Shown: positions 22,170 to 61,107, numbered from the stretch's first letter. The stretch: DNA of 64,000 nucleotides from an uncultured Acidobacteriota bacterium (GCA_963700145.1 OY969474.1:4192001-4256000), one strand, 5' to 3'. Numbers and translations are program-made. Notes: a model not told the origin generated them from the letters alone.

Positions 22170-23810
22170 CTGCTCCGCCGCAGCGTCCCGCTCCTCCTCG
22201 CGTCCCTCCTCGCCGCCGCCGCGCCGGCCGCGGCGGCGATCCGCTTCCGCGAGGTCGCCGAGCCCTGGGGGCTCGCCTTCCGCCACCATCACGGCGGCAG
22301 CGGCCAGCGCCACATGCCGGAGACGATGGTGGGCGGGGTCGTCGTCTTCGACTACGACGGCGACGGCGACGAGGACGTGCTCTACGTCGACGCCGGGCCC
22401 CTCGCCGGCTACACGGGCGAGCCGCCGCGCTCGCGCCTCTTCCGCAACGACGGCGCCGGGCGCTTCGTGGACGCCACCGCCGCGGCGCGCCTGGCCGGCC
22501 CGGAGTACGGCGCCGGCGGCACCGCCGGCGACGTGGACGGCGACGGCGACCTCGACCTCTTCCTGGCCGGCTTCGGCCCCGACCGGCTGCTGCGCAACGA
22601 GGGGGACGGCACCTTCCGCGACGTCACCGCCGCCGCCGGCGCGGGCGACCCCTCCTGGAGCATGTCGGCGGCCTTCGCCGACCTCGACCGCGACGGCGAC
22701 CTCGACCTCTACGTCGCCAACTACGTCGAGTACCGCCTCGACGTCCACAAGGCCTGCTTCGACGAGGCCCGGCAGCTCGCCGGCTACTGCACGCCGCTGC
22801 GCTTCCTCGGCGCCCCCGACCGCCTCTTCCGCAACCGCGGCGACGGCACCTTCGCCGAGGCGACGCGGGAGATGGGCCTGCCGGAGGACGCCGGCAACGG
22901 GCTCGGCGTGGTCGTCGCCGACCTCGACGAGGACGGCTGGCCCGACCTCTACGTCGCCAACGACACGACGCCCAACTTCCTCTACCGCAACCGCGGCCGC
23001 GACGCCGGGGGCAAGCACGCCGGGTTCGAGGACGTCTCGACACTCTCCGGCGCCGCCCTCTCCGACCGCGGCCGCGCCGAGGGGAGCATGGGAGTGGACG
23101 CCGGCGACGCCGACGGCGACGGGCGGCTCGACCTGGTGGTGACGAACTTCGAGCTCGAGACCAACGTCCTCTACCGCAACCAGGGGAACCTGCTCTTCTC
23201 CGACAGCCGCTTCGCCGCCGGCATCGCCGAGCCGTCGCTGCTGTCGCTCGGCTTCGGCACCGCCTGGGCCGACTTCGACCACGACGCCGATCTCGACTTC
23301 GTGGTCGCCAACGGGCACATCCTCGACAACGCCGAGGCGATGAAGTCGCCCACCCCCTACCGCCAGCGCAACCAGGTCTACGAGAACCGGGGCGGCGGCC
23401 GCTTCGCGGAGGTGAAGGACGCGGGGCTCGACGTCGTGCGCGCCAGCCGCGGCCTGGCCACGGGCGACCTCGACGGCGACGGCGACCTCGAGGTCGTGGT
23501 CGTCAACTCGAACGACTGGAGCGAGGTCTACGAGGGGCTGGCGGCGGGGCCGTGGCTGGCCGTGGACCTCCTGGGGCGGGAGAGCAACCGCTCCGGGATC
23601 GGGGCGCGGGTCGAGCTGGAGTCGGCGGGCAAGCGCCAGGTGCGCGAGGTCAAGACCGGCTCCTCCTACCTCTCCCAGAACGCCTTGACCCTGCACTTCG
23701 GGCTCGGCGGCGCCGCTGCGGCCGACCGCCTGTCCGTCCGCTGGCCCTCCGGCAAGCGGCAGCGCTTCGAAGGTCTGCCGGCCAACCGGCGGTTGCTGAT
23801 CGTCGAATGA
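22170..23810 (+). CDS. CRTAC1-family protein (FG-GAP repeats + ASPIC/UnbV), copy 1; start uncertain (possibly CTG 22170)
   Basis: DxDGDGDxD repeats, SRGLATGD, GIGARV, SYLSQN..LHFGLG, VRWPSG; an in-frame signal peptide lies upstream of the listed ATG 22314. Confidence 0.88.
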   Translation: MLRRSVPLLLASLLAAAAPAAAAIRFREVAEPWGLAFRHHHGGSGQRHMPETMVGGVVVFDYDGDGDEDVLYVDAGPLAGYTGEPPRSRLFRNDGAGRFVDATAAARLAGPEYGAGGTAGDVDGDGDLDLFLAGFGPDRLLRNEGDGTFRDVTAAAGAGDPSWSMSAAFADLDRDGDLDLYVANYVEYRLDVHKACFDEARQLAGYCTPLRFLGAPDRLFRNRGDGTFAEATREMGLPEDAGNGLGVVVADLDEDGWPDLYVANDTTPNFLYRNRGRDAGGKHAGFEDVSTLSGAALSDRGRAEGSMGVDAGDADGDGRLDLVVTNFELETNVLYRNQGNLLFSDSRFAAGIAEPSLLSLGFGTAWADFDHDADLDFVVANGHILDNAEAMKSPTPYRQRNQVYENRGGGRFAEVKDAGLDVVRASRGLATGDLDGDGDLEVVVVNSNDWSEVYEGLAAGPWLAVDLLGRESNRSGIGARVELESAGKRQVREVKTGSSYLSQNALTLHFGLGGAAAADRLSVRWPSGKRQRFEGLPANRRLLIVE

Positions 23811-23880
23811 AAACGCCCGGCACGTAGGCCGGGCGCTACGGCGGCCTTCGTAGCGGCGGGCCTACGTGCCCGCCGTTTTC
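23809..23880. repeat. Inverted pair of 31-bp GTAG-type REP elements
   Basis: 23809-23839 is the reverse complement of GTAG-CGCCCGGC-CTACGT-GCCGGGCG-TTTTC; 23850-23880 is GTAG-CGGCGGGC-CTACGT-GCCCGCCG-TTTTC. Confidence 0.85.
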
Positions 23881-25215
23881 TCTCAGGTGGTTCGAAGCGC
23901 AGCGGTAGCCGCCGGTGAGGATCACGCTGCGCACGAGCGGGGGCAGGAAGTCGAGCCGGGTCCCGGCGCGAGCGAAGACCTCCGCGGCGAGCTTGTCGCC
24001 GGCGGGCAGCAGCGCGGCGAACCCTTCGGCCCTGACCTTCCCTTCCCGTGTCTCGACCACCACGTTGTTCCAGGTGATCCGGAAGTCGGGGTGGCCGACC
24101 CCGCGCGGGTCGGCGAGGAGCGGCACAGGGACGTTGAGGAGCGGCAGCCGCCCGACGTCCATCCCCTGCCGCGCGAGGTGCGCCGCGACCGCGTCGAGGA
24201 AGCCTTGCAGCGCTGCGGCGCGGGGGCCCTCCTGGACGGCGGCGAGCGCCGCCGCCACGTCCGCGGCGCCGGGAGCGAGACCGTAGGCGGCACGGAAGCC
24301 TTCCCACTCCGCGGGCGTCGTGCGGCGGAGGGCCTCACGGCCGAGCCCGAAGTCGGCGACCAGGGCGCGCAGGCCCCCACCGGGCGCCGGCAAGAAGGTG
24401 ACGAGCGAGTCGAGGTCGTAGCCCGCGCCGCCGCCGAGCGTGCGCAAGAGCGCCGGCCGCGCCGCCGGCGCGACGTCGGCCGGCCGTGGGTGGACGAAGC
24501 GCACGGGCCGGCCGTAGAGGCCGCCCAGCTCGGCCGCGGCGTGCTCGACGGCCGCCATGTAGCGGTCCACGCCGGCCGCCGTGGCGAACTCTTCGACCGG
24601 CACACGTGCCAGCCCGAGGATCTCGAGCGCCCGCAGCTCGACGGTGTGGAGGCTGATCCAGGCGCCGCCGCCGGCCAGGAGCACCTGGCCGTTGTGGAAG
24701 GGCACCGGCGCCCTCGTCCAGCGCACGCCCCCCCAGGCCTCGTCCAGCGCCGGCGGCAGGTTCTCCACCACCGCGCGCCCCATCCAGAGGTCCTCCTCGC
24801 GCCCGGGCTGGGCGTTCGGCCGGGTGAGGACCACCACCCTGCCGTCGCCGTCCCGGACCAGGCTCAGCGGATCGCGCGGCCAGGGGGAGTAGCGGCGGCC
24901 GGAGGTGGGGAGGACGGTGAGGCCGGGAGCCGCGGCGAGCCGCAGGTCGGTCAGCACCAGGAGCGTACGCCGCCCGTCGAGCGCCCGCACCGCGGCGAGG
25001 AGCGCCTCGGCCTCCGGCCGCGCGATCAGGTGGGAGGGGAAGGAGTAGAGCGACGCCACGAGACGGCCCGCGGTGTCGTCGGCGAAGCGGAGGCGGCCGG
25101 GGGCGTAGGGAGCATCGGGAGCGGCGACACCCCCTCCGGCCGGGGCGGGCTGCGCGGTGGAACAAGACCAGAGGAAGCCCAGCGCGACGGCGAGCCGGGC
25201 GGGGACTGCGAGCAT
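23836..25215 (-). CDS. Lipoprotein with putative pentein (amidinotransferase/agmatine deiminase-like) fold
   Basis: Lipobox LWSC; SPWPRD, ITWNNVVV, C-terminal GGYRCAS. Confidence 0.6.
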   Translation of the reverse strand: MLAVPARLAVALGFLWSCSTAQPAPAGGGVAAPDAPYAPGRLRFADDTAGRLVASLYSFPSHLIARPEAEALLAAVRALDGRRTLLVLTDLRLAAAPGLTVLPTSGRRYSPWPRDPLSLVRDGDGRVVVLTRPNAQPGREEDLWMGRAVVENLPPALDEAWGGVRWTRAPVPFHNGQVLLAGGGAWISLHTVELRALEILGLARVPVEEFATAAGVDRYMAAVEHAAAELGGLYGRPVRFVHPRPADVAPAARPALLRTLGGGAGYDLDSLVTFLPAPGGGLRALVADFGLGREALRRTTPAEWEGFRAAYGLAPGAADVAAALAAVQEGPRAAALQGFLDAVAAHLARQGMDVGRLPLLNVPVPLLADPRGVGHPDFRITWNNVVVETREGKVRAEGFAALLPAGDKLAAEVFARAGTRLDFLPPLVRSVILTGGYRCASNHLRENGGHVGPPLRRPP

Positions 25216-25264: not shown

Positions 25265-27355
25265 ATGGCCAAGAAGCGGCGCGGCGAGCGCTCCCGCCGG
25301 GCGGAAGCGCCCGCTCCCGCCTCCGCAGCGCCCGCGGCACTGGAGCCGCGCGCGACCCTCCCTCGCACCTGGCTCGCCGCCGTCGCCGCGCTCGCCTTCG
25401 CGGTGCGCGCCGCGGTCGCCCTGCAGCTCGCGCCGACCGCGCTCTTCCGCTTGCCGCAGCTCGACTCGCTGGAGTTCCTGCTCTGGGCGCAGAGCGTCGC
25501 CGCCGGCGAGGCGCGCTGGCCGGCGGTCCCCACGCACGGTCCCGTCTACCCCTACTTCCTGGGCGCCCTGCTGGCCCTCTTCGACGGCTCCTTCACCGCC
25601 GTGCGCCTGGTGCAGGCGGCGCTCGGCGCTGGGCTCTGCGCGCTCGCCGCCGTCCTCGCTGCCTGCCTCTTCGACGACCGCCGCGCCGGTCTCGCCGCCG
25701 GGCTGCTGCTGGCGCTCTACGGGCCGCTCGTCTACGTCGAGATCTCCTTCCTCGCCGAGGGGCTGCTGCTCTTCCTGGCGTTCGCGGCGCTCTGGTGCCT
25801 GCTCCGGCCGGCGCCGACTCCCGGGGCCTCCATCGCCGCCGCAGCCGCCGCGGGCCTCCTCCTCGGCCTCGCCGCAGCGACCCGCGCCACCGCCCTGGCG
25901 CTCGTCCTGGCGCTGGCGCTCGCCCTCCTCCTCGACCGCCGCCGGCCGCGGCGCGCGCTCGCCGCCGGCGCGCTCGCCGCCGCGGCCCTGGCCGTGGTCC
26001 TGCCCGTCCTCGTCGCGGTGCGGCAGGCGAGCGGGAGCTGGCTGCCGATCCAGGGCTACGGCGGCCTCAACCTCTACATGGGGAACCGCCCGGGCGCCCC
26101 AGGCGTCCCCACCGCGCGGCTCGGCGGCGACTGGGACCGGCTGAGCGGCGAGCCCGCCCGCCGTGGCATCGCCGGCGCCGCGGCGCAGGAGCGCTGGTAC
26201 ACGCGCCAGCTCCTCGCCGAAGCGCGCGAGCGGCCGGGCGCGGTGCTGGCGGCGGTCGCGCGCAAGGGCGGGTGGCTCGTCCAGGACGAGGAGATCCGCG
26301 AGAGCCACAGCTTCTACTTTTTCCGCGCACGCTCGGCGCTCCTGCGCATCCTGCCCGGCTTCGCACTCCTCTTCCCGCTCGCCCTCTGCGGGCTGGTCGC
26401 GGCGGTGCGGGGACGCCGTCTGCCGCCCGCGCTCGCGCTCTACCTCCTGGTCTTCGCCGCCTCCTGCGTCGCCATCGTCATGTCCTCGCGCTACCGGCTG
26501 CCGCTGGTGCCGGCGCTCGCCGTCCTGGCCGGCGGCGGGGTCGCCTGGCTGCTCGACGCGGCGCGGGAACGGCGCTGGAAGACCCTCGGCGGCTTGGCCG
26601 CGCTCCTGGCGGCGGGGTTCGCCGCGACCCAGCTCCGCGACCACGCCCCGAGCCGCAATCTGGCCGAGGAGTCGGCCCTGACCGCCCTGTCGCTGGAGGC
26701 GCAGGACGACGTCGCCGGGGCGCGCGCGGCCGTCAAGGAGGCGCTGCGGGAGGACCCCGAGTCGGCGTTCGCGTGGGCGATCGCCGGGCGGCTGGCGGAG
26801 CGCGAGGGGGACGCGGCGCGGGCGGAGCGCGCCTTCGCCGCCTCCGCCCGGCTGGCGCCGGACTTCCAACGCGCGCGGCTCAACCTGGGGGCCGCCCTGC
26901 GGCGGCGCGGCGACCTGGCCGGCGCCGAGCGCGAGCTGCGGCGGGCGCTCTGGCTGGTGCCGGGGCACGCCGGGGCGCGGCGCGAGCTGGCGGCGGTGCT
27001 GCTCGAGCGCGCCCGGCGCGAAGGGGCGGCGCGCAACCCGGGGCGCGGCCAAGCGCTGGCCGCCGAGGCGGCGCGCCTCGCCCCCGGGGAGGCGGAGAGC
27101 TGGCTGACGCTGGGGATGCTGGCGCTCGACGCCGGCGACCCGGCCGCCGCCCGCGCCGCATTGGAGCGCGCGGGCGGGATGATGGGCCCGGAAGCGCCGC
27201 CGGTCGCCCTCGGCTGGGCGCTGCTGGACCGCCTGGAGGGGCGGCCGGAGGCGGCCGTGGAGCGGCTGCGGCGGCTTCTGGCGCGCCACCCCGGCTACCA
27301 GCCGGCGGCGCAGCTCCTGCGCGCCCTCGCTACGAGCGCCCCTCCTTCTCCTTGA
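25265..27355 (+). CDS. GT-C (PMT/ArnT-like, GT39-like) membrane glycosyltransferase with C-terminal TPRs
   Basis: LD..F..WA..., PVYPYFLG, VRLVQA, GGLNLYMGN, SRYRLPLVP, then TPR helices. Confidence 0.8.
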   Translation: MAKKRRGERSRRAEAPAPASAAPAALEPRATLPRTWLAAVAALAFAVRAAVALQLAPTALFRLPQLDSLEFLLWAQSVAAGEARWPAVPTHGPVYPYFLGALLALFDGSFTAVRLVQAALGAGLCALAAVLAACLFDDRRAGLAAGLLLALYGPLVYVEISFLAEGLLLFLAFAALWCLLRPAPTPGASIAAAAAAGLLLGLAAATRATALALVLALALALLLDRRRPRRALAAGALAAAALAVVLPVLVAVRQASGSWLPIQGYGGLNLYMGNRPGAPGVPTARLGGDWDRLSGEPARRGIAGAAAQERWYTRQLLAEARERPGAVLAAVARKGGWLVQDEEIRESHSFYFFRARSALLRILPGFALLFPLALCGLVAAVRGRRLPPALALYLLVFAASCVAIVMSSRYRLPLVPALAVLAGGGVAWLLDAARERRWKTLGGLAALLAAGFAATQLRDHAPSRNLAEESALTALSLEAQDDVAGARAAVKEALREDPESAFAWAIAGRLAEREGDAARAERAFAASARLAPDFQRARLNLGAALRRRGDLAGAERELRRALWLVPGHAGARRELAAVLLERARREGAARNPGRGQALAAEAARLAPGEAESWLTLGMLALDAGDPAAARAALERAGGMMGPEAPPVALGWALLDRLEGRPEAAVERLRRLLARHPGYQPAAQLLRALATSAPPSP

Positions 27356-28958
27356 GCTTCTTCAAGTTGCCGGCGGCCACCTGGTCGTCCGGCTTGATCT
27401 CCAGCACCTTCTCGAGCAGCGTCCGCGCCTGGGCGAAGTCGCCGCGGACCATCAGCAGCACAGCGAGGTCGTTCATCGCCGGCACGTAGGCCGGGGCGAG
27501 CTGGAGGGCGCGCCGGAAGTCGGCCTCGGCCGCGTCGGGCTGGCCCATGGCGAGCTGGACGACGCCGCGCTGGTAGACGGCGTCGGGGTTGTCGGGAGCG
27601 AGGCGCAGCGTGTCCTGCGCCACCTGGAGCGCTTCGTCCAGGCGCTTGAGCGAGAGCAGGGCGCGGATCGAGAGGACGCGCGGCCAGAGGTCGCCGGGCG
27701 CGGCCGCCGCCGCCTTCCGCGTCAGCTCGAGCGCCTTCTCGAACTGGCCGAGCTCGAGCAGCTTCAACGCCTCGCGCAGCGCCGGGTCCGCCGGCACGTT
27801 GGGCCCCTCCTTCGCCGCGGCGGCCGCCACCTGCGCTTCGGCCGACAGCTCGGAGAAGCGGGCGAGCGCCTTCTGGGCGTCGTCGCGCCGGCCGGCGCCC
27901 GTCAGCGACTGGCCGTAGGTCTGCCAGGCCTGGGTGTCGCGCGGCAGGAGCTGCGTGGCCTTTTCCAGCACCGGCACCGCCTCGGCGTGCCTGCCCGCCG
28001 CGACCAGCATCCGGCCGTAGGCGCGGACGATGGCGCCGGCCAGAGCGCGCGCGTCGTCCCGCTGCGGCGGCGCCTTCTGGTCGCGCACCGCCTCGGCGAG
28101 GGGGCGGAGCTGGGCCAGCGCCCGGTCCACCTCGCCCCGCTGGTAGAGGGCGTCGGAGAGGAGGAGCGCGGTGGCGGGGTCCTGCAAGTCCCCCTGCTCG
28201 AGCAGCGCGATCGCCGCCGCCGAGTCGCCGGTCGCGAGGTGAGCGTCGGCCAGCATGCGGTAGAGGTCGGCCTTCATCTCGGGGGGGTGCTGCGCGCGCA
28301 GCGGCTCGAGCATCGCCAGCGCGGCGCGCGGGTCCCCCTGGGCGAGCAGGAGCTTGCCGCGCAGGAGACGCACCTTGGGCTGCTCCTCCGGCGTACCGGC
28401 GAGGAGCGCCGCGGCGTCCTCCCGCCGGCCGAGCTGCAGGGCGAGGAGGGCCGCCGCGAGGCGGTTGTCGAGGTCCTCCGGATGGGCCGTCGCCCAGGGG
28501 CGGAGGAGGGCGTAGGCGGCCACCGGGTCGCCCTCCTGCGCGAGGGCGATGCCGAGCTCGCGGCCGGCCGGCGAGACCGGCGCCAGCTTGGCCGCGCGCT
28601 CCAGGTAGCCGCGCCCCTTCTCCGGCAGCCCCGCCGCGAGCGCGGCGCGGGCGGCGTTGTAGAGGACAGCCGGATCGGCGTCCGGCTTGTCGGCGAGCGG
28701 CACGAGGAGACCGTAGGCCTCGGTGCCGCGCCCGGCCTCCAGATAGAGGGCGCCGAGCATCGAGAGGACGATCACCGGCGTGTCGGGCTGCGCGCGCAGC
28801 GGCTCGAGCGCGGCGATGGCGCCCGCCATGTCGCTGGCTGCCAGGCGCTCCTGCGCCGCGATGAGCGCCTGGGCCGCCGCGGGGGGGACGGGCGCCGGGG
28901 TCTGCTGGGCCGCAAGAGGGGCGGCGAGAAGAAGCAGCGAGAGCAAAAGACTCTTCAT
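27330..28958 (-). CDS. Secreted multi-TPR protein
   Basis: AAGGAG RBS; signal MKSLLLSLLLLAAPLAA; TPR units (AVYQRG...AEADFRRALQLAP). Confidence 0.85.
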   Translation of the reverse strand: MKSLLLSLLLLAAPLAAQQTPAPVPPAAAQALIAAQERLAASDMAGAIAALEPLRAQPDTPVIVLSMLGALYLEAGRGTEAYGLLVPLADKPDADPAVLYNAARAALAAGLPEKGRGYLERAAKLAPVSPAGRELGIALAQEGDPVAAYALLRPWATAHPEDLDNRLAAALLALQLGRREDAAALLAGTPEEQPKVRLLRGKLLLAQGDPRAALAMLEPLRAQHPPEMKADLYRMLADAHLATGDSAAAIALLEQGDLQDPATALLLSDALYQRGEVDRALAQLRPLAEAVRDQKAPPQRDDARALAGAIVRAYGRMLVAAGRHAEAVPVLEKATQLLPRDTQAWQTYGQSLTGAGRRDDAQKALARFSELSAEAQVAAAAAKEGPNVPADPALREALKLLELGQFEKALELTRKAAAAAPGDLWPRVLSIRALLSLKRLDEALQVAQDTLRLAPDNPDAVYQRGVVQLAMGQPDAAEADFRRALQLAPAYVPAMNDLAVLLMVRGDFAQARTLLEKVLEIKPDDQVAAGNLKKLKEKEGRS

Positions 28959-31503: not shown

Positions 31504-32463
31504 ATGTTCGGCAGGACGATTTGCGCGCTCTTTCTCACCTGTGTAATGGCCGCCGCGGCCGTTGCTCAGGACGCCGCCGCGCTGCGCGAAGCAGGGGAGC
31601 GGCGGATTGCGGCTCGGGAGTATTCGGCGGCGATCCTGGTGCTGGAGAAGGCGGTGGCGTTGGAGCCTCAGGGGGCGGCGGGGCATGCTGCGCTGGGGCG
31701 GGCGCTGGCGCTGGAGAGGCGGTTTGCGGAGGGGGCGGAGCATTTGCGGCGGGCGATCGCGCTGGGGGATCCGCGGATCGCCACGCGGCTCTATCTCGGC
31801 GCGGCGCTCTGGGAGTCGGGGCAGGTGGAGGCGGCGGAGCGGGTGTTCCGGGCTGCGACGGACGAGAGCGGTGGGGCCGTCCAGGCCTTGCACCAGCTCG
31901 CAAGGTTGCTCCTCTGGCAGGGGCGGCACGCCGACGCGCTGCCGCTTCTCGAGCGCGCCGCGCGGATGACGCCGGACGCGGTCGAGATGCAGTGGGACCT
32001 CGCCCGCGCTTATCAGGAGACCGGGCGCCACGCCGACGCGGTCGCGGTCTACCGGCGGCTGCTGGCGCAAGAGCCGGAGCTGGCGCAGGCGCGTTATGCG
32101 CTGGGGCTTCTCCTGCAGCGGACCGGCGACGCCGAGGGGGCGCGGCGGGAGCTGGCGGAGTACGCGCGGCTGCACGCCGAGGAGAAGGCGCGGACGCACC
32201 GCGAGGGGCTCGAGCGGGCGCGGCTGGACGAAGGGTGGCGGCTGCTCTCGGAGAAGAAGGCGGGGGAGGCGCTGGAGCACTTCCAGAAGATCTCGGGGTG
32301 GGAGGCGCTCTCCGGCCAGGCGGCGGCGCTCACCGCGCTCGGGCGGCACGCCGAGGCGGTGCAGGCGCTGGAGCGCGCGGTGATTCTCGCCCCGGAGCGG
32401 GAGGAGCTGCGGTTGTCGCTGGCCGAGGCGCGCCAAGCCGCCGAGAAGCGTTCAGGGAAGTGA
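31504..32463 (+). CDS. Secreted TPR protein
   Basis: Signal MFGRTICALFLTCVMAAAAVA; TPR units; TGATG coupling to the next gene. Confidence 0.82.
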   Translation: MFGRTICALFLTCVMAAAAVAQDAAALREAGERRIAAREYSAAILVLEKAVALEPQGAAGHAALGRALALERRFAEGAEHLRRAIALGDPRIATRLYLGAALWESGQVEAAERVFRAATDESGGAVQALHQLARLLLWQGRHADALPLLERAARMTPDAVEMQWDLARAYQETGRHADAVAVYRRLLAQEPELAQARYALGLLLQRTGDAEGARRELAEYARLHAEEKARTHREGLERARLDEGWRLLSEKKAGEALEHFQKISGWEALSGQAAALTALGRHAEAVQALERAVILAPEREELRLSLAEARQAAEKRSGK

Positions 32464-47569: not shown

Positions 47570-47662
47570 AGCCCCCGCGCCCGCGGGCCATGCGCCGGCC
47601 AAGCCGGCCCACATGCTAACCTAGCCGCAGAAATCGCGCAGTCAAAGGCGGGCGAGGAGCGG

Positions 47663-52530: not shown

Positions 52531-54579
52531 ATGCCCTCTCGCACGGACCTGAAAACGCCCGGGACGTGGCCCGGGCGCTACCCACCGATCGGGCGTAGCG
52601 CCCGGCCTACGTGCCGGGCGTTCTTCCTGGCCTTCACCGCGCTCGTCTTCCTGACGCCCCTCGCCGGTCAGGCCCCGCCGCGCTTCGGCGGCTCGACCTC
52701 GGTCGTGGTCGTCGAGGTGCCGGTCAACGTCACCAAGGACGGCAAGCCGGTACGCGGTCTGACCGCCGAGAACTTCGAGCTCACCGACGGCAAGACTAGG
52801 CAGCCGATCACCGGCTTCGAGGTGATCGACCTGGGCGCGGTCGGGGCCGAGGGGCAGCGGCGCATCCCGATCGCCGCCCGCCGCCACTTCCTCTTCCTCT
52901 TCGACCTCACCTTCGCGCAGGCGAATTCGATCGTGCGGGCGCGCACGGCGGCGGTCGATCTGGTGCGGCAGGGCTTCCACGCCGCCGACCTCGGCGCCGT
53001 CGCCACCTACAGCGCCACCCGCGGCGCCGAGCTGGTGCTCGGCTTCAGCAGCGACCGCGCGCAGATCGAGGCGGCGATCCGGTCGCTCGGCCTGCCGCAG
53101 CTCGTCAACCGCGCGCCGGACCCGCTGCGGCTGATCGTCGCCGACATCCGGGCGGAGGCGGGCAGCGACATCATGCCGGGCGTCCGGGGCGGCGGCGGCG
53201 ACCGCGACTTCCGCGCCGAACGCCGAGAGGCGATCGACTACCAGATGGTCGAGATCGTCGGCGACATCCAGCGCGACAGCAACGAGCAGCAGATGCGGAC
53301 GGCGCAGAACCAGGTGGTGGCGCTGACGCGCTCCTTCTCCGAGCTGGCGCAGATGATGGCCTCGGTCGACGGCCGCAAGCACGTCGTCTACCTCTCCGAG
53401 GGCTTCACCGCCGGCGCCGCCCTCGGCCGCGGCCCCGACCGCGAGACCAGCGACGCGCAGGGACGCAACGACGGCCGCGACGTCCTGCTGACCATGGCGC
53501 GCGACACCGGCGGCGAGCTGTTCCAGAACACCAACGACCTCGCCGCGGCGATGGCGCGGATGCTCTCGGCGACGAGCGTCACCTACCTGCTGGCCTTCCA
53601 GCCCGAGGGCCTGGCGCAGGACGGCACCTTCCATCCGCTCAAGGTGCGCCTGAAGGGCGGCCCGCGCGGCGCGCGGGTCTACCACCGCGCCGGCTACTAC
53701 GCGCCCGATCCGTTGCGCGTGGTGCGGCCGCTCGAGCAGAGCCTGACCTCGGCGGCCGAGATCCTGAGCGGCGAGGAGGGCGGGAACCTCCCGGTCTCAG
53801 CGCTGGCGGTGGCGCTGCCGCTGCCGGGCGCGGCGGGGAAGGCGGTCGTGCCGCTGCTCGTCGAGGTGGACGGGCCGGCGTTGCTCGCCGGCCACGTCGG
53901 GCCGGCCATGTCGGTCGAGATCTACGCCTACGCGCTGGGGACGGAAGGCTCGGTCGATGGCTTCCTCACCCAGCGCCTGGAGCTCGACCTGACCAAGGTC
54001 GCCGACGAGCTGCGGGCGAGCGGCCTCAAGTTCTACGGCGAGCTGGAGCTGCCGCCGGGCTCCTACGAGGTCCGCCTCCTGGTCAAGAACGCGCAGATGG
54101 GAGGCGCCCACGCGCTGCGCTCGCTGCCGGTCGAGGTGCCGGCCGCGCCGCAGCTCTCGCCGCCGCTCTTCGTCGCGGCGGCGGGCGGGTGGCTGCTGAC
54201 GCGGCAGGCGCCGCGGCCGGGCGAAGCGGCGCGGGCGTATCCGTTCACGCTCGCCGGCCAGCCGTTCGTGCCGGACGCGCGGCCGGTGGTCGCGGCGGCC
54301 GGCGAGGCGCGGATCGCTCTGCTGGCCTCGGATCTCGGGAGCGGCGAGGTGGTGGCGCAGGCCGAGGTGCTGCGCGCCGCCGACCGCCAGCCGGCTTCAG
54401 GCGGCGGCTTCCGCCTGCTCGAGCGCCAGCGCGGCGAAGCGGGTGCGCCCGACCGGCTGGTCGGGGTCTTCACGCCGGCCGGCCTGCCGCCCGGGGAGTA
54501 CGTGTTGCGCGTCACGGTCACCGACCGGGCGAGCGGCGCCGCCCGCACGAGCGCCGCGCCCTTCGTGGTCGAGGGGTAG
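52531..54579 (+). CDS. Secreted VWA-domain protein, paralog 3 (REP pair in signal peptide; about 60-aa internal deletion)
   Basis: GGAGG RBS plus ATG 52531; 3' part of listed ORF 51148..54579. Confidence 0.85.
   Translation: MPSRTDLKTPGTWPGRYPPIGRSARPTCRAFFLAFTALVFLTPLAGQAPPRFGGSTSVVVVEVPVNVTKDGKPVRGLTAENFELTDGKTRQPITGFEVIDLGAVGAEGQRRIPIAARRHFLFLFDLTFAQANSIVRARTAAVDLVRQGFHAADLGAVATYSATRGAELVLGFSSDRAQIEAAIRSLGLPQLVNRAPDPLRLIVADIRAEAGSDIMPGVRGGGGDRDFRAERREAIDYQMVEIVGDIQRDSNEQQMRTAQNQVVALTRSFSELAQMMASVDGRKHVVYLSEGFTAGAALGRGPDRETSDAQGRNDGRDVLLTMARDTGGELFQNTNDLAAAMARMLSATSVTYLLAFQPEGLAQDGTFHPLKVRLKGGPRGARVYHRAGYYAPDPLRVVRPLEQSLTSAAEILSGEEGGNLPVSALAVALPLPGAAGKAVVPLLVEVDGPALLAGHVGPAMSVEIYAYALGTEGSVDGFLTQRLELDLTKVADELRASGLKFYGELELPPGSYEVRLLVKNAQMGGAHALRSLPVEVPAAPQLSPPLFVAAAGGWLLTRQAPRPGEAARAYPFTLAGQPFVPDARPVVAAAGEARIALLASDLGSGEVVAQAEVLRAADRQPASGGGFRLLERQRGEAGAPDRLVGVFTPAGLPPGEYVLRVTVTDRASGAARTSAAPFVVEG
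52551..52623. repeat. Inverted pair of GTAG-type REPs inside the paralog 3 reading frame
   Basis: 52551-52581 GAAAACGCCCGGGACGTGGCCCGGGCGCTAC; 52595-52623 GTAGCGCCCGGCCTACGTGCCGGGCGTTC. Confidence 0.85.
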
Positions 54580-54583: not shown

Positions 54584-56771
54584 GTGCGCGGCCGGGCGCG
54601 GCTCCTCGCTCTCCTGCCGCTCCTGCTGGCGCTGGCGCCGGCGCGCCTGCCGGCGCAGGCGGGGCGCTTCGGCGACACCGCCTCGGTCGTCGTCGTCGAG
54701 GTGCCGGTCCAGGTGGTCAAGGACGGGAAGCCGGTGCGCGGCCTGACGGCCGAGAACTTCGAGGTCTGGGACGGCAAGACGAAGCAGCGGCTCACCGGGT
54801 TCGAGGCGCTCGACCTGGCGGCCCTGGAGGCCCGCGGCGCCGCCGCCGGGGCGCCGCCGCGCGCCCTGCCGCCCGCCGCCCGCCGCCACGTCCTCTTCCT
54901 CTTCGACCTCACCTTCGCGCGCCCCAAGTCGATCCTGCAGGCGCGGGAGGCGGCGCAGGACCTGGTGCGCGACGGCCTCCACGCGAGCGACCTCGCCGCG
55001 GTCGCCACCTACAGCGCCAGCCGCGGCAGCGAGCTGGTGCTCGGCTTCACCGCCGACCGCGCGCAGCTCGAAGCGGCCATCGAGTCGCTCGGCCTGCCGC
55101 AGCTGGTGCCCCAGAGCCCCGACCCGCTGCGGCTGGTGATCGCCGGGCTCGAGGCCGACATGGGCCTCGGCGCGCCGGGCCTGGGCGGCGGCGCCGGCAC
55201 CGGCATGGGGCGCCGCTCGGACGGCCGCGAAGACTTTCTCGAGGTCCTCAAGCGGGCGCAGCGGGAGATGGAGGCCAGCCAGCGGCACACCCTGGAAGAC
55301 CAGGTCTCCGCCGCCAGTCGCTCCCTCGCGGACCTGGCGCAGGTGATGGGCGCCGTGGACGGCCGCAAGCTCGTGGTCTACCTCTCCGAAGGCTTCCAGG
55401 CGAGCGCCGCCACCGGCACGGGGAGCGACGCCGACAGCGCGAACGCGGTGGCGAGCGGCGAGAGCTGGAAGGTGGACAGCGAAAAGCTCTACGGCAGCGC
55501 GCGGGTGCAGGCGGCGCTGGCGGCGATGTTCGAGAGCTTCCGCCGCGCCGACTGCATCGTCCAGGCGGTGGACATCGGCGGCGTGCGGACGGCGGGGCCC
55601 GAGGCGGCGACCGAGCACCGCCCCGACGCCGACGTCGCCGACACCGGCCGCGACGCGCTGCTGGCGATGGCCCACTACACCGGCGGCGAGCTGTACCAGA
55701 ACTTCAACGACCTCGGCACGGCGATGGGCAAGATGCTCGAGCGGACGAGCGTCACCTATCTCCTCTCGTTCCAGCCCGAGGGCCTCGTCGCCAACGGCGC
55801 CTTCCACAATCTCGAGGTGCGTCTCAAGGGCGCGCCGCGCGGCGCCCGCGTCCACCATCGCGCCGGCTACTTCGCGCCCGACCCGTCGCGCGCCGTCCAT
55901 CCGCTGGAGCAGCGGCTCCTGGCGGCGGCCGACATCCTGGGTGGCGAGGAGGGCGGCACGCTGCCGGTCTCCGCCCTCGCCGTGCCGCTGCCGGGCGGCG
56001 GGGCGGAGGCGGGACGGTGCCGCTGCTGCTGGAGATCGACGGGCCGGCGCTCCTGGAAGGTCACGTCGGGCGCTCGCTGGCGCTCGAGATCTACGCCTAC
56101 GCCCTCGACCGCGCAGCAGGCGGTGCGCGGCTTCCTGACCCAGCGCGTCGACCTCGACCTCGAGAAGGTGGAGGCGGAGCTGCGCGCGAGCGGCCTCAAG
56201 TTCTACGGCGAGCTGGCGCTGCCGCCGGGCGCCTACACGGTGCGCCTGCTGGTGCGCAACGCGCAGAGCGGCGCCCGCAGGCTCCGCTCGCTGCCGGTCG
56301 AGGTGCCGGCGGCGGTGGTCGGGGCCGCCGGCGCGGGGCCGCTGGTGTCGCCGCCCCTCTTCCTGGCGAGCGGCGGGAGCTGGCTGGTGACGCGGCAGGC
56401 GGAGCGCGCCGGCGAGCCGGCGCGCCAGTACCCCTTCACGCTCGCCGGACAGCCCTTCGTCCCCGACATCCGGCCGGTCGTCGCCGCGGCCGGCGAGGCG
56501 CGCGTCGCGCTCCTCGCCTACAACCTGGGCAGCGGCGAGGTCGTGGCGCGCGCCGAGGTGCTGCGCGCCGCCGACCACCAGCCGGCCGCGGGCGGCGGCT
56601 TCCGCCTCCTCGACCGCCAGCGGGGGGGAAGGCGGCGGCCCTGACCGGCTGCTCGGCGTCTTCACCTCGGCCGGGCTGCCGCCCGGCGACTACCTGCTGC
56701 GCGTCACGTTGACCGACCGCGCGAGCGGCGCCACGCACTCCAGCGCCACCGCGTTCGCAGTCGGAGGCTAG
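54584..56771 (+). pseudogene. VWA-domain protein, paralog 4, three apparent frameshifts (real or assembly error)
   Basis: Homology switches frame near 56010 and back near 56110, then again at the G7 run 56622-56628; the conserved tail GLPPGDYLLRVTLTD ends at TAG 56771. Confidence 0.8.
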
Positions 56772-56774
56772 CCG

Positions 56775-58922
56775 GTGCGCGCGCCGATCGCCCGGCTCGC
56801 CCTCCTCCTCGCGCTCCTCGTCCCGCTCGCGCCGGCGGCGTCGCCCGCCCAGGAGGGGCGCTTCGGCGAGACGGCGTCCGTCGTCGTCGTCGAGGTGCCG
56901 GTCCAGGTCACCAAGGACGGGAAGCCCGTGCGCGGCCTGACGGCCGAGAGCTTCGAGGTCTTCGACGGCAAGACGAAGCAGCGGATCACCGGCTTCGAGG
57001 TGATCGACCTGGCGGCGCTGGGGGTCGCGGGCACCGCCGCCGGCACCCAACCGCCGCCGCCCGCGCCCGCCCTGCCGCTCGCCGCCCGCCGCCACTTCCT
57101 CTTCCTCTTCGACCTCACCTTCGCGCAGCCCAAGTCGATCCTGCAGGCGCGCAAGGCGGCGCTCGGGCTGCTGCGGACCGGCCTGCACCCGACCGACTTC
57201 GCGGCGGTCGCCACGTACGGCGTCAGCACCGGCTCCGACCTGGTGCTCGGCTTCACCGCCGACCACGCGCAGGTGGAGGCGGCGATCCACTCGCTCGGGC
57301 TGCCGCAGCTCCTCGAGCGCACCGGCGACCCGCTCCGGCTGCTGATCGCCGACATCAACGCTGAAAAAGGGCTCGGCACCCTCCCGCCGGACATGCCCCA
57401 GGAAGCGCTGCAGGACACCGTGGAGGGGGCGCACTTCGAGGAGATCCAGCGCCTCGCCGACGCGAACTACCGCCGCTCGCTGGAGAACCTGGTGAGCTCC
57501 GCGACGAGCTCCCTCGCCGAGCTGGCGCAGACGATGGCCGTGGTGGACGGCCGCAAGTTCGTCGTCTATCTCTCCGAGGGGTTCCAGGCGAGCGCCGCGA
57601 CCGGCAAGGGCATGGACGCCGGCACCGCGGCGCTGGCGGCCTCGGGCGCGGTGTGGACGGTGGACAACGCCAAGGTCTACGGCAGCGCCCGCGTCCAGGC
57701 CGACGTGGCGAACATGCTGGAGAGCTTCCGCCGCGCCGACTGCGTGATCCAGGCGGTGGACATCGGCGGCGTGCGCACCGCCGGCGTCGAGGCGGCGACC
57801 GAGCTGCGCTCGGACGCCGAGGTCGTCGACACCGGCCGCGACTCGCTCCTCACCATGGCCCACTACACGGGCGGCGAGCTCTACGAGCGCTTCAACGACC
57901 TCTCGGCGGCGATGGGGAAGATGCTCGAGCGGACGAGCGTCACTTACCTCCTCGCCTTCCAGCCGGAAGGGCTGGCCCACGACGGCGCCTTCCACGACCT
58001 CCAGGTGCGGTTGAAGGGCGGGCCGCGCGGCGCGAAGGTCCACCACCGCGCCGGCTACTTCGCCCCCGACCCCCGCCGCCCGGCGAACCCGCTGGAGCAG
58101 CGGCTGAGGGCCGCGGCCGACATCCTGAGCGGCGAGGAAGGCGGCGACCTGCCGGTCGCGGCGCTCGCCGTGCAGCTGCCCTCGGGCGCCCTGCCGCTGC
58201 TGCTCGAAGTGGACGGGCCGGCGCTGCTCGCCGGCGGCAGCGGGCCGCCGGCGCTGGAGATCTACGCCTACGCCCTCGACGCACAGCAGGCGGTGCGCGG
58301 CTTCCTGAGTCAGCGCGTGGACCTCGACCTGGCGCAGGTCGAGGCGGCGCTGCGCGCCGGCGGCCTCAAGTTCTACGGCGAGCTGGCGCTGCCGCCGGGC
58401 GCTTACACGGTGCGGCTCCTGGTGCGCAGCCTGCCGGGCGGCGCCCAGGTCCTCCGCTCGCTGCCGGTCGAGGTGCCCGCGGCGGGCGCCGGGCCGATGG
58501 TGTCGCCGCCTCTCTTCCCGGCGGCGGAGACGGGCTGGCTCCTCACCCGGCAGGCCGAGCGTCCCGGCGCGCCGCCGCGCGAGTACCCCTTCACCCTCGC
58601 CGGCCGGCCGTTCGTGCCCGAGGCGCGGCCGGTCGTCGCCGCGGCGGGCGAGGCGCGCGTCGCGCTCCTCGCCTACAACCTCGGGAGCGCCGCCGTGGCG
58701 CGCGCCGAGGTGCTGCGCGCCGGCGACGGCAAGCCGGCGGCAGGCGGCGGCTTCCGCCTCCTCGACCGCCAGCGCGGCGAAGGCGGCGCGCCCGACCGGC
58801 TGGTCGGGGTCCTGACCGCGCGCGGCCTGCCGCCAGGCGAGTACCTGCTGCGCGTCACCGTCACCGACCGCGCCAGCGGCGCCACGCATTCGAGCGCCGC
58901 GTCCTTCGTAGTGAAAGGATAG
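56775..58922 (+). CDS. Secreted VWA-domain protein, paralog 5
   Basis: Intact 715-aa ORF with all conserved blocks. Confidence 0.9.
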   Translation: MRAPIARLALLLALLVPLAPAASPAQEGRFGETASVVVVEVPVQVTKDGKPVRGLTAESFEVFDGKTKQRITGFEVIDLAALGVAGTAAGTQPPPPAPALPLAARRHFLFLFDLTFAQPKSILQARKAALGLLRTGLHPTDFAAVATYGVSTGSDLVLGFTADHAQVEAAIHSLGLPQLLERTGDPLRLLIADINAEKGLGTLPPDMPQEALQDTVEGAHFEEIQRLADANYRRSLENLVSSATSSLAELAQTMAVVDGRKFVVYLSEGFQASAATGKGMDAGTAALAASGAVWTVDNAKVYGSARVQADVANMLESFRRADCVIQAVDIGGVRTAGVEAATELRSDAEVVDTGRDSLLTMAHYTGGELYERFNDLSAAMGKMLERTSVTYLLAFQPEGLAHDGAFHDLQVRLKGGPRGAKVHHRAGYFAPDPRRPANPLEQRLRAAADILSGEEGGDLPVAALAVQLPSGALPLLLEVDGPALLAGGSGPPALEIYAYALDAQQAVRGFLSQRVDLDLAQVEAALRAGGLKFYGELALPPGAYTVRLLVRSLPGGAQVLRSLPVEVPAAGAGPMVSPPLFPAAETGWLLTRQAERPGAPPREYPFTLAGRPFVPEARPVVAAAGEARVALLAYNLGSAAVARAEVLRAGDGKPAAGGGFRLLDRQRGEGGAPDRLVGVLTARGLPPGEYLLRVTVTDRASGATHSSAASFVVKG

Positions 58923-58926
58923 GGCG

Positions 58927-61107
58927 ATGCAGCGCAGGCCCGTCCTGCTCGCCCTCCTCGCCGCGGTCGCCGGCGTCCTCGCCGCCGGCCTGCCCGCCCA
59001 GGAAGGACGCTTCGGCGAGACGGCGTCGGTCGTCGTCGTCGAGGTGCCGGTCAACGTCACCAAAGGCGGCCGGCCGGTGCGCGGTCTGACGGCCGAGGAC
59101 TTCGAGGTCTTCGACGGCAAGACGAAGCAGCGCCTCACCGGCTTCGAGGTCGTCGACCTCGGGCGCTCAGCAGGCCGCGGCCTCGCCGCGCGCGCTCCCG
59201 CTCGCCGCCCGCCGCCACTTCCTCTTCCTCTTCGATCTCACCTTCGCGCAGCCGAAGTCGATCGTCCGGGCGCGCGAGGCGGCGCTCGGCCTGGTGCGGA
59301 GCGGCCTCCATCCGACCGACCTCGCGGCCGTCGCCACCTACGGCGCGAACCGCGGCACCGAGCTGGTCCTCGGCTTCACCGCCGACCGCGCGCAGGTGGA
59401 GGCGGCGATCGAGACGCTTGGCCTGCCGCAGCTCCTCGCCCGCGGCCCCGACCCGCTGCGGCTGGTGGTGAAAGAGGCGCAGGCGATGGCGCTGCTGGGG
59501 TCCGGCGAGCGGGCGGGGGGAGGTGGGGAGGCGGCGGCGGGTGAGCGCTTTGAGAGGAAGCAATTCTTCCTCGACGAGGTGGAGGCGCACCTCGAGGAGC
59601 TGCAGCAGTTGAGCGCCGTGCAGGACCGGCGGGCGCTGCAAAACCAGGTGGTGGCGCTCACCCGGTCCTTCGCCGAGCTGGCGCAGATGATGGCGTCGGT
59701 GGACGGCAGGAAGCACGTCGTCTACCTCTCCGAGGGGTTTCAGGCGAGCACCGCCACCGGCCGCGGCAGCGACGCGGAGACCGCGGAGGCCGTGGAGCAC
59801 GGCGAGATTTGGAAGGCGGAGACCGAGAAGCTCTATGGCAGCTCGCGGGTGCAGGGCGACGTCGAGCGCATGCTCGAGGCCTTCCGGCGCGGCGACTGCG
59901 TGGTCCAGGCCGTGGACATCGGCGGCGCGCGGACCGCCGGGCCCGACGCCGCGACCGAGCTGGCGAGCGACGCCGCGGCGCAGGGCGACGGCCGGGACGT
60001 CCTGCTCACCATGGCGCACGACACCGGCGGCGAGCTCTACCAGAACACCAACGACCTCTCGGCCGCGATGGCCGCGATGCTCGAGCGGACCGCGGTCACC
60101 TACCTCCTCGCCTTCCAGCCCGAGGCGCTGCCGCACGACGGCACCTTCCGTCCCCTCAAGGTGCGGCTCAAGGGGGGGCCGCGCGGCGCCCAGGTCTCCC
60201 ACCGCGCCGGCTACTACGCGCCCGACCCGGCGCGCGTCGCGCTGCCGCTCGAGCGGACCCTGCTGACGGCGGCGGAGATCCTGGGCGACGAGGAGGGCGG
60301 CAGCCTGCCGATCGCGGCGCTCGCCGTGCCGCTGCCGGGGGGCGCGCTGCCGCTGCTCGTCGAGATCGAGGGCCCGGCCCTCCTCTTCGGGCACCAGGGG
60401 GAGGCCCTCGAGGTCGAGATCTACGCCTACGCGCTGGACGGCGCCGGGGCGGTGCGCGGGTTCCTCACCCAACGCGTGAACCTCGACCTGGCGAAGGTGC
60501 GCGAGACGCTCGGCGCCGGCGGGCTCAAGTTCTACGGCGGCCTGGCGCTGCCGCCGGGCTCTTACACGGTGCGCCTGCTGGTACGCAACGCCCAGAGCGG
60601 GGCCCGGGCGCTCCGCTCGCTGGCGGTCGAAGTGCCGGCGGCCGGCGCGGAGCCCGGCGCGGCCGCGGCGGCGCCGTTCCTCTGCCGCCGCTCTTCGCCG
60701 ACGCCGCCGGGCGGTGGATCGTGGCGCGCGAGCAGCGCGGCGAGGAGGAGACCTTGCCGCCCGATCCGTTCCTGAGCGGCGGCGCGCCCTTCCTTCCGGC
60801 GGTGCGGCCCGTCCTCGCCGCCGGCGCCGAGGCGCCGGTGACGGTCCTCGTCTCCAACCTGGCCGCGGAGCAGGCCCAGGTGCGCGCCAAGGTCCTCGAC
60901 GCCGCCGGCCGGGAGGTTGCCGGCGGCAAGCTCCGCATCGCCGCCTGGCGGCGCGGCGCGGCCGGCGCGCTCGGCCGCATGGAGGGGAGCTTCGCCACCG
61001 CCGGCCTGCCGCCAGGGGAGTACGTGCTGCGGGTCACCGTCACCGACCCCGCGAGCGGCGCGGCGCAGTCGAGCACGGCCGCCTTCGTGGTCGCGGCGGC
61101 CGGCTGA
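58927..61107 (+). pseudogene. VWA-domain protein, paralog 6, two apparent frameshifts (real or assembly error)
   Basis: Pieces are in ORFs 58927..59544, 59294..60775 and 59809..61107; shifts near 59160-59200 and near 60680. Confidence 0.8.

Follow-up and report, generated by a model that had tools for sequence, protein, structure and literature searches.

A transporter-centred envelope gene neighbourhood in Thermoanaerobaculia that brings together sulfatase-fold enzymes and TPR, propeller and VWA proteins

Surface systems built around a TonB-dependent transporter have been described in the form of the SusC/SusD polysaccharide utilisation loci (PULs) of Bacteroidota and of the surface toolkit of Porphyromonas gingivalis, which consists of the peptide importer RagAB, the gingipain cysteine proteases and the deiminase PPAD. 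Most TonB-dependent transporters import, and to our knowledge a single exporting one is known. Acidobacteriota are among the most abundant bacteria of soil and sediment, and their huge families of TonB receptors, VWA proteins and ASPIC/UnbV proteins are without an assigned role; paralogue expansion of all three is recorded for Solibacter in the excerpted text of PMC3174227. Here we analysed positions 22170-61107 of a 64,000-nucleotide stretch of DNA from an uncultured Acidobacteriota bacterium (GCA_963700145.1 OY969474.1:4192001-4256000; the whole stretch is referred to as the window). An earlier note, made from the sequence alone, had described this region as an uncharacterised envelope system of about 39 kb, either a PUL-like uptake locus or a surface-modification system. 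It is well supported that the region comprises several transcription units that are found together again, though in varying order, in other Thermoanaerobaculia (Acidobacteriota), and that it is not one operon. As to function, we tentatively favour, with somewhat less than even confidence, a transporter-centred capture-and-processing system that spans the outer membrane and periplasm and works in import. No functional description of this gene combination was found in the published literature, in agreement with a remark to that effect in the earlier note.

Plain lists of open reading frames (ORFs) are unreliable in this DNA because the G+C content of the window is 62-78%; such a list held 180 overlapping frames. 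Genes were called from the codon-position GC pattern and starts were then inspected by eye, after which 31 window ORFs were scanned with Pfam and 26 with NCBIfam. Together with the loci described below, the scans give good support to a conserved core made up of a sigma54-type promoter, an Oar/SusC-class transporter, a strong hairpin terminator, the gene CPD_TPR and one to three sulfatase-fold genes with a threonine motif. The core features in the window, along with a TPR-only gene beside them, are as follows.

39586..42594, minus strand: Oar/SusC-class TonB-dependent transporter with CarboxypepD_reg extension (Pfam), probable plug and predicted barrel
42755..42770, minus strand: sigma54-type -24/-12 element TGGCACcccacTTGCT, a perfect TGGCAC-N5-TTGCT
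42727..42755, minus strand: sigma70-like TTGACC-17-TAGAAT, overlapping the -12 part of the sigma54 element
39515..39543, minus strand: intrinsic-terminator-like hairpin (12-bp stem and T run) just past the transporter stop codon
38319..39386, minus strand: CPD_TPR, secreted protein with CarboxypepD_reg and TPR (Pfam)
36223..38319, minus strand: SulfTPR2, sulfatase-fold protein with T-L-P-S-H motif and TPR, N-terminal membrane anchor (PF00884, E 3.6e-38)
28998..31148, minus strand: SulfTPR1, sulfatase-fold protein with T-L-P-S-H motif and TPR, lipoprotein with lipobox (PF00884, E 3.9e-43)
27330..28958, minus strand: TPR553, secreted TPR-only protein downstream of SulfTPR1 (TPR_19, E 2.3e-47; signal peptide)

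Neighbourhood conservation was evaluated by a genome scan that employed an alignment of SulfTPR2 homologues. Of its 654 pattern matches, 638 encoded relatives, the best 80 of which correspond to 78 loci from Thermoanaerobaculia, Vicinamibacteria, Aminicenantes, Terriglobia and a few other groups, and families were mapped in these loci with TPR-free pieces as tblastn queries (E ≤ 1e-8). Random scatter of the families, named earlier as an outcome that would speak against a system, was not what we observed; the same set lies adjacent, in shuffled order, in the 78 loci, and density falls with distance. For the transporter this fall is about twentyfold, from 10.8 per 100 kb within 2.5 kb of the query gene to 0.5 in the outermost distance bin (7.5-10.5 kb), which was the sole background and is also depressed by truncation at locus ends. 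The transporter was located directly upstream of the array of sulfatase-fold genes, on the same strand, in 22 of the 55 loci with at least 4 kb of upstream sequence, and directly downstream of it in 13 of the 57 with at least 5 kb downstream. All 12 matches to CPD_TPR adjoin a sulfatase-fold gene on the same strand, and nine of them also adjoin the transporter.

A Pfam scan of 62 ORFs from six of these loci revealed the same families re-assembled in different orders, with orthologues 39-68% identical in L001, L008, L010, L018 and L028. In L008, for example, VWA and TG_TPR (a transglutaminase-like gene) occupy one strand, and the divergent strand carries the transporter, CPD_TPR, two sulfatase-fold TPR genes and a homologue of the pentein lipoprotein of the window (a 492-residue ORF without a Pfam match, found by tblastn), followed by a methyltransferase, a CRTAC1 gene and a TPR protein. 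The methyltransferase, of the S-adenosylmethionine (SAM) type, lies at 16094-17029 between the pentein and CRTAC1 genes. It is well supported that the neighbourhood as an envelope gene set is typical of Thermoanaerobaculia and that its core extends to the wider Acidobacteriota.

The earlier designation of the transporter as a sigma54-associated TonB receptor holds. Its CarboxypepD_reg extension is clearly present (PF13620, E 9.6e-18, 64.8 bits against a cut-off of 32.3). The plug match is weak and just below cut-off (E 1.1e-4, 23.1 bits against 23.9), and no barrel model was matched by the window protein at E<0.01 in Pfam. Orthologues of 39-53% identity do match PF25183 (E 1.6e-24, 1.5e-19 and 9.1e-32) and PF00593. 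A sequence search of the transporter against solved structures returned nothing at E ≤ 1e-3. The sigma54-type element lies roughly 160 nucleotides upstream of the transporter ATG and is the sole site in the window without a mismatch. Putative sites retaining the GG/GC core with at most one mismatch, no more than 450 nucleotides upstream, were found for 13 of 30 near-full-length transporter homologues, Aminicenantes and Vicinamibacteraceae included, compared to 24 of 3000 random windows drawn from the same loci. A relaxed sigma54 pattern was not enriched across the window (9 matches against 14.5 expected), and for this putative promoter it is only the perfect site and its conservation that carry weight. 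The sigma70-like pattern was found once against a shuffle mean of 0.2, and TTGACC is located at the same place in L001 and L008; dual promoters at the transporter are thus possible, judging from these patterns.

Between promoter and start codon, the transporter leader contains a GC-rich palindrome, GCCCCCGCGCGGGGGC, at ~42635-42652 (minus strand), which has no Rfam match. Searching the window with Rfam at gathering thresholds gave two tRNAs only, with which ARAGORN agrees, and no known RNA in the transporter leader; a riboswitch or other known RNA in the leader was rejected on this window-wide result. At the other end of the gene, a terminator-like feature was observed by a crude test in 23 of 30 related loci and in 40 of 600 random windows. 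With a terminator at this position, the downstream genes would be expressed by read-through or from promoters of their own. The recurrence of the feature suggests a set ratio of expression between the transporter and the genes that follow.

The sulfatase-fold proteins are not sulfatases of the known formylglycine (FGly) kind, as T-L-P-S-H stands at the FGly position. The solved relatives closest to SulfTPR2 are formylglycine sulfatases (choline sulfatase 7oz8, E 2.3e-21), and in alignment with sulfatases 7oz8 and 6pt6 residue T87 falls on the FGly residue and H91 on the arginine of C/S-x-P-x-R. The fold is that of PF00884, with the sulfatase motif replaced. T-L-P-S-H, D47 and D253-H254, metal ligands among them, do not vary across the 18 homologues aligned. 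Among the 118 sulfatase-fold genes of the related loci, T-x-P-x-H was found in 105, and in the remaining 13 the motif escaped detection, using a regular expression that left the nucleophile position open to any residue; the same expression detected no C/S...R form in the 118. Filing these proteins as phosphodiesterases was also considered. SulfTPR1 has a match to PF01663 (nucleotide pyrophosphatase/phosphodiesterase; E 6.9e-18) that is partial and covers only the N-terminal ~76 profile positions. The filing was rejected: the N-terminal 113 residues match sulfatases at E 3.3e-9, and the phosphodiesterases 7n1s and 2gsn only at E 1.5e-3. The connection from a threonine nucleophile to phosphoryl or ester transfer is established knowledge of the alkaline-phosphatase superfamily, and by this analogy phosphoryl or other ester transfer would be the likelier chemistry. 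Thousands of annotations as 'sulfatase-like hydrolase/transferase' are probably misleading on chemistry.

TG_TPR and, usually, VWA genes are attached to the core in divergent orientation from the transporter, an arrangement that is again well supported. The CRTAC1 propellers are more loosely associated, each tending to sit by a TPR gene. The genes on the divergent side of the transporter are listed below.

42952..44079, plus strand: TG_TPR, transglutaminase-like lipoprotein with TPR, divergent from the transporter (PF01841, E 4.5e-5)
44086..45417, plus strand: DUF3179 protein with C-T-L-C motif, absent from the earlier list of genes (PF11376, E 1.3e-68)
48079..50241, plus strand: VWA1, orthologue of the VWA gene located after TG_TPR in other loci (TIGR03436, 174.6 bits)
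50285..52405, plus strand: VWA2, metal-site motif degenerate (D-L-A-F-A) (TIGR03436)
52531..54579, plus strand: VWA3, about 50 residues missing inside the VWA domain (TIGR03436)
54584..56768, plus strand: VWA4, C-terminal 48 residues in another frame (TIGR03436)
56775..58922, plus strand: VWA5 (TIGR03436)
58927..61107, plus strand: VWA6, three frame pieces with two frameshifts (TIGR03436)

TG_TPR was the divergent neighbour of the transporter in all seven of its matches. A VWA gene comes next in six of these, and in the seventh (L001), as in the window, the place is taken by DUF3179. The Pfam match of TG_TPR is weak (24.1 bits against a cut-off of 23), with the L001 orthologue reaching E 2e-7, and a Cys-His-Asp triad (C112, H153, D168) is invariant in five of five orthologues. 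DUF3179, whose pairing with TG_TPR is also found in L001 (3315-4628), was tried as the 'pentein' of the earlier list and rejected, the pentein being the lipoprotein at 23836-25215. The DUF3179 family includes selenocysteine forms with UxxC/T, according to the excerpted text of PMC9312934, which makes a redox role plausible, perhaps in partnership with the cysteine enzyme.

All six VWA genes (48079-61107) score above the TIGR03436 cut-off in NCBIfam, at 114.6-174.6 bits against 81.25. D-x-S-x-S is found in VWA1 only (D-L-S-F-S), and VWA3-5 have D-L-T-F-A. The defects of VWA3, VWA4 and VWA6 are either those of decaying tandem duplicates or pseudogenes, or indel errors of long-read assembly. In the related loci a VWA gene adjoins a sulfatase-fold gene on the same strand in 11 of 21 matches and in 10 of 16 loci with VWA, and VWA genes are interleaved in sulfatase-fold arrays that include those of Vicinamibacterales and of a Bryobacterales metagenome-assembled genome. 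In the structure model of VWA1 (predicted local distance difference test, pLDDT, 88.9) a sandwich at the N-terminus is joined to a VWA domain that has a long helical insertion, and immunoglobulin (Ig)-like domains make up the C-terminal part. A whole-chain fold search was uninformative, as only the Ig-like C-terminal domains were matched (RbmA, pilins, transglutaminase barrels), at template modelling (TM) scores of no more than 0.3. An Atlas search with VWA1 returned only unnamed acidobacterial clusters, and TIGR03436 is restricted mainly to Acidobacteriota. The MoxR/Bat-type VWA operon is defined by a MoxR AAA+ ATPase and DUF58 beside VWA; Pfam found neither in the 31 window ORFs. A C-terminal TPR domain is present in six of seven VWA-family members of 1073-1204 residues. 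The long members that bear it (1073-1105 residues) are P0283, P0292, P0313, P0323, P0335 and P0378, a Rosetta-stone-like link between VWA and TPR.

The region further encodes three CRTAC1-like propellers and a TPR protein coupled to one of them.

22170..23810, plus strand: CRTAC1_1, six FG-GAP_3 repeats and UnbV_ASPIC (Pfam, E 7.4e-56 and 2.4e-24)
31504..32463, plus strand: TPR340, secreted TPR protein coupled to CRTAC1_2 by overlapping stop and start codons (TPR families)
32460..34157, plus strand: CRTAC1_2 propeller (Pfam FG-GAP_3 and UnbV_ASPIC)
34154..36133, minus strand: CRTAC1_3 propeller, last gene of the transporter-side unit (Pfam, E 2.5e-43 and 2.8e-18)

All three carry an FG-GAP propeller and UnbV_ASPIC, the combination that defines the CRTAC1 family. 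The signal peptide of CRTAC1_1 requires a CTG start at 22170, with GAAGG eight bases upstream; no ATG, GTG or TTG is located ahead of the signal peptide in 22104-22314, the interval inspected. Among solved structures the propeller profile matches CRTAC1 (9etn_A, E 9.6e-43, profile positions 119-553) and integrin alpha-V (~1e-7). Modelling of a CRTAC1-TPR interface had been proposed in the earlier note and was performed with CRTAC1_2 (residues 30-565) and TPR340 (residues 22-319) along with three controls. The interface was predicted confidently: the interaction score ipSAE was 0.87, 0.88 and 0.88, compared to 0.00 for the best of the three controls, with 85-90 contacts, a partner pLDDT of 90 and agreement between runs in at least 96% of contacts. 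By rough counts in which own alignments were used, this docking mark is found in 116 of 157 solved complexes and in 2 of 215 mismatched pairs. The model supports binding of TPR340 to CRTAC1_2. Residues W103, E104, L136 and G140, invariant in the TPR340 family, fall in or beside the predicted interface. Docking of TPR domains onto propellers in general is a hypothesis prompted by such models. In a manual count over the window and six annotated loci, a TPR-containing gene adjoins CRTAC1 on the same strand in 9 of 10 cases. TPR is fused as well to a CarboxypepD_reg protein in the window and to a Peptidase_MA domain in L028, where the TPR-Peptidase_MA protein (18650-19879) lies within a same-strand array.

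Two genes of more restricted occurrence complete the set of putative enzymes.

23836..25215, minus strand: pentein-fold lipoprotein of 459 residues (structure model and Foldseek)
25265..27355, plus strand: GT-C (PMT_2) membrane glycosyltransferase with C-terminal TPR (PF13231, E 1.4e-12)

The lipoprotein has no Pfam or NCBIfam match, and its 804 homologues carry the name 'hypothetical' wherever a source name is given. Its predicted structure (pLDDT 88.3, predicted TM score 0.86) was matched by Foldseek to 6b10, 1zbr, PAD1-4 and 5ak7 at E 1.9e-9 to 1e-7, and to agmatine deiminases at E 1.9e-9, with probability 1.00 and target-normalised TM scores of 0.59-0.68. The pentein fold called earlier is thereby confirmed at the level of the predicted structure, which resembles agmatine and peptidyl-arginine deiminases. 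Motifs PW.RDP, FHNGQ and GGYRC.S.H are invariant, as are the candidate catalytic residues C439, H174 and D115 in 35 sequences. The homologue search recovered this gene in three loci (L001, L008, L053) and the GT-C gene in two of 78 (L001, L053).

The GT-C assignment (48.6 bits against a cut-off of 26.1; TPR at residues 508-713 of the 732-residue ORF) is by family model, as only the TPR part of the sequence was matched among solved structures. This gene raises the prospect of envelope or exopolymer modification, in which the glycosyltransferase and threonine-nucleophile transferases would decorate a surface glycan, lipid or protein in the manner of head-group transferases from the same Pfam family, TPR proteins would act as periplasmic scaffolds and the barrel would be an outer-membrane component. 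A threonine nucleophile is typical of transferases in the sulfatase fold and TPR scaffolds occur in polysaccharide export machines, both of which count in its favour, as does a weak NCBIfam resemblance of SulfTPR1 to phosphoethanolamine transferases, LtaS and YejM (E 1.5e-5 to 7.9e-5). However, the sulfatase-fold proteins have a single anchor or a lipobox and not the multi-span membrane domain of head-group transferases, Pfam detected no polysaccharide synthase, flippase or Wza/Wzc-type genes among the 31 ORFs, the GT-C gene is confined to the two loci, and the N-terminal extension and probable plug of the barrel are those of a transporter. We judge this very improbable, the least likely of the readings weighed here.

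Under the capture-and-processing reading, VWA proteins and calcium-binding CRTAC1-like propellers would bind a polymeric substrate, and TPR modules would dock enzymes onto the propellers, an arrangement predicted for TPR340 and CRTAC1_2 only. Threonine-nucleophile esterases and the transglutaminase-like enzyme would process the substrate, in this genome possibly together with the deiminase-like lipoprotein, and the transporter would take the products in. Import is favoured because most TonB-dependent transporters import and because an inorganic product would explain why there is no dedicated permease; the absence of an inner-membrane permease and of cytoplasmic enzymes would fit scavenging of phosphate or ammonia via general transporters. 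Direction of transport cannot be read from sequence, and our confidence on direction is low.

Several observations weigh against this mechanism. Pfam found no inner-membrane permease, cytoplasmic catabolic enzyme, regulator or TonB-ExbBD genes in the cluster among the 31 ORFs, some of which a classical uptake locus would usually have, and likewise no SusD-like protein and no glycoside hydrolase. An Oar-class transporter acts in export, as stated in the excerpted text of PMC6434023. The sigma54 site is located at the transporter only: at 11 of 12 other starts the best candidate has 4-6 mismatches, and that of VWA3 has two. A sigma70-like promoter overlaps the sigma54 element, and the conserved terminator may cut the transporter off from the genes downstream. 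No other TPR domain of the window contains LWESG or LLWQGR, the motifs of TPR340 at the predicted interface, and the docking is therefore not generalisable. From the inner to the outermost distance bin, the density of CRTAC1 and VWA falls only about threefold (3.0 to 0.9 and 2.7 to 0.9 per 100 kb, respectively), CRTAC1 adjoins a sulfatase-fold gene on the same strand in only 3 of 25 matches, the GT-C, pentein and DUF3179 genes recur only in L001, L008 and L053, and degeneration is apparent in two or three of the six VWA copies.

The first rival is export. In such a scheme the Oar-like transporter would move TPR-tagged cluster proteins across the outer membrane, to form a surface layer or matrix that is adhesive and carries enzymes. 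The architecture of the transporter, a CarboxypepD_reg extension and a probable plug, is that of Oar, and Oar is needed for secretion of the protease PopC, importers and exporters being indistinguishable by sequence according to the authors (PMC6434023, excerpted text). The cluster consists of signal-peptide proteins only, with neither permease nor cytoplasmic enzyme, and VWA, FG-GAP propeller and transglutaminase-like folds are typical modules of adhesion and cross-linking. The Ig-like domain matches of VWA1 point the same way, but at the low TM scores given above. Set against this, exporting transporters are limited to the one mentioned at the outset, no sequence mark singles out cluster proteins as cargo, and the three cluster proteins that are lipoproteins or membrane-anchored fit the periplasm equally well. 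Export in this form is unlikely in our estimation, although it is a contender. A bolder variant is an undescribed surface-assembly system with sigma54-controlled Oar-type export, TPR domains that plug into propellers and integrin-like binding by VWA, amounting to a toolkit like that of an extracellular matrix. To the adhesion modules this would add a transglutaminase-like enzyme, a deiminase and a TPR-bearing GT-C glycosyltransferase. The scheme as a whole strikes us as quite improbable.

A second rival holds that there is no single system. Independent modules, namely transporter with sulfatase-fold genes, pairs of TPR and propeller, the VWA array, and GT-C/pentein, might lie side by side through duplication and shared ancestry, with functional linkage confined to the transporter, CPD_TPR and sulfatase-fold genes. 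The families are huge, with 7415 SulfTPR2 homologues at E ≤ 1e-10 among 8000 scored and 13315 cluster representatives of the VWA1 family at E ≤ 1e-3, and the Solibacter paralogue expansions in the excerpted text of PMC3174227 document such growth. The threefold enrichment of CRTAC1 and VWA near the query, the lack of a sigma54 site common to the units, genes on both strands and the degenerate VWA copies, which suggest recent tandem duplication, all agree with this view. It does not sit well with re-assembly of the same set in loci of only 39-68% identity (L001, L008, L010, L018, L028), with the adjacency of TG_TPR to the transporter (7/7) and to VWA (6/7), with VWA genes inside sulfatase-fold arrays in 10 of the 16 VWA loci, or with the existence of VWA-TPR fusions. 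We consider a mere assemblage of modules fairly improbable, and the capture-and-processing system centred on the transporter is retained as the preferred reading.

Whichever reading applies, a testable core is now at hand in the transporter with its sigma54 element and terminator, the sulfatase-fold enzymes that are not sulfatases of the known kind, the TPR tags and the predicted TPR-propeller complex. If scavenging of organic phosphate or nitrogen, or export of a surface matrix, were true, it would bear on nutrient turnover and surface attachment, and export in particular would supply a second test case for protein export by Oar-class transporters.

As regards the layout of the region as a whole, positions 22170-61107 contain 19 genes of the families named earlier, one gene not named before (DUF3179) and one low-GC islet. 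The Pfam and NCBIfam tally is three genes with FG-GAP_3 and UnbV_ASPIC, two with Sulfatase and TPR, one each with PMT_2 and TPR, Transglut_core and TPR, CarboxypepD_reg and TPR, and CarboxypepD_reg and Plug, two with TPR only, and six tandem TIGR03436 genes. All families of the earlier note were accordingly recovered, the pentein by its structure model only, and TPR is fused to the three enzyme folds it had listed, namely sulfatase-fold, GT-C and transglutaminase-like (Pfam). Its boundaries proved exact, since housekeeping genes flank the region: ProRS, a molybdenum hydroxylase and an extracytoplasmic function (ECF) sigma factor upstream, and an RlmI-like methyltransferase, two tRNA-Val genes and ThrRS downstream. 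Translational coupling was seen as claimed, with overlaps of 1-4 nucleotides in TPR340/CRTAC1_2 and CPD_TPR/SulfTPR2, and gaps of 4-6 nucleotides separate TG_TPR from DUF3179 and VWA3 from VWA4. Every gene outside the islet carries a secretion or anchor signal: the N-terminal hydrophobic segment of 17 of the 19 cluster proteins passes a crude hydropathy cut-off of 2.0 and the other two are marginal (1.99 and 1.92), compared to 8 of 21 flanking and toxin-antitoxin genes in the same test. What did not survive is the single 39-kb unit, as the genes, distributed over both strands, fall into at least five units, with the sigma54 site at the transporter only and a terminator after it.

The islet is not part of the system and has the following features.

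45444..47624, no strand: low-GC islet with 21-nucleotide tandem repeat, PIN toxin and small ORF
45444-45657: 21-nucleotide tandem repeat of about ten copies, consensus beginning CCCGAGATCTATCC, directly past the DUF3179 stop codon at the islet edge
46684-47100, minus strand: PIN_3 toxin (Pfam/NCBIfam)
47097-47318, minus strand: small ORF upstream of, and overlapping, the PIN toxin

Between ~45.3 and 47.6 kb its G+C content is 55-65%, compared to ~72% around it, and it looks like an insertion because other genomes have TG_TPR followed directly by VWA at that place. Farther upstream in the window are a toxin-antitoxin-like Gp49/HTH_37 pair, an AbiEii-like gene, an ECF sigma factor with a zf-HC2 anti-sigma factor, and a membrane protein of ~1050 residues with a spermine-synthase domain (coordinates listed for these features: 1256-1907, 11818-12747, 4868-6047, 7621-10857). 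ThrRS is found near the cluster both in the window (63132-63998) and in L010 (13007-14935), which suggests a conserved chromosomal position.

In comparison with known systems, the locus shares with the SusC/SusD PULs of Bacteroidota a TonB-dependent transporter with CarboxypepD_reg extension, followed by secreted or lipoprotein genes for binding and processing, and all-helical repeat proteins that adjoin the transporter. It differs in its sigma54-type promoter, in the absence from the Pfam results of SusD/RagB, of a glycoside hydrolase or lyase and of a hybrid two-component or ECF regulator, and in its accessories, which are T-x-P-x-H enzymes, VWA proteins, CRTAC1-like propellers and a transglutaminase-like protein. 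Neither the SusD family nor a glycoside hydrolase or lyase was found in the 31 window ORFs or in the 62 ORFs of the six related loci, and with no inner-membrane permease either, the region is not a canonical PUL as the earlier likeness might have implied. Oar of Myxococcus xanthus shares with the transporter the PF13620 extension, probably the plug, and possibly the handling of proteins in place of small nutrients (PMC6434023, excerpted text), whereas the window is without a PopC homologue and without linked TonB-ExbBD; the two are likened by architecture and not by sequence alignment. Like the P. gingivalis toolkit, the locus combines an Oar/SusC-class transporter, a cysteine-protease-fold enzyme and a pentein lipoprotein that matches PPAD (5ak7) structurally, but the pentein is linked to the transporter in few genomes only, no sequence homology to RagB or gingipains was seen (no search aimed at it was made), and the resemblance is a lead and not a test. 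With type I sulfatases (choline sulfatase 7oz8, carrageenan sulfatase 6pt6) the enzymes have the PF00884 fold and the metal-binding Asp and His residues in common, while T-L-P-S-H replaces C/S-x-P-x-R throughout the family and a TPR domain is fused at the C-terminus. The propeller profile matches both animal CRTAC1 and the alpha subunit of integrin alpha/beta pairs, and VWA proteins are encoded nearby; here, however, the propeller is predicted to pair with a TPR protein and not with VWA, and D-x-S-x-S is kept in VWA1 only. Finally, all six VWA genes are members of TIGR03436, a comparison that also takes in the paralogue expansions of Solibacter usitatus (PMC3174227, excerpted text), and a family without a described partner or function is here linked to TG_TPR, the transporter and the sulfatase-fold genes.

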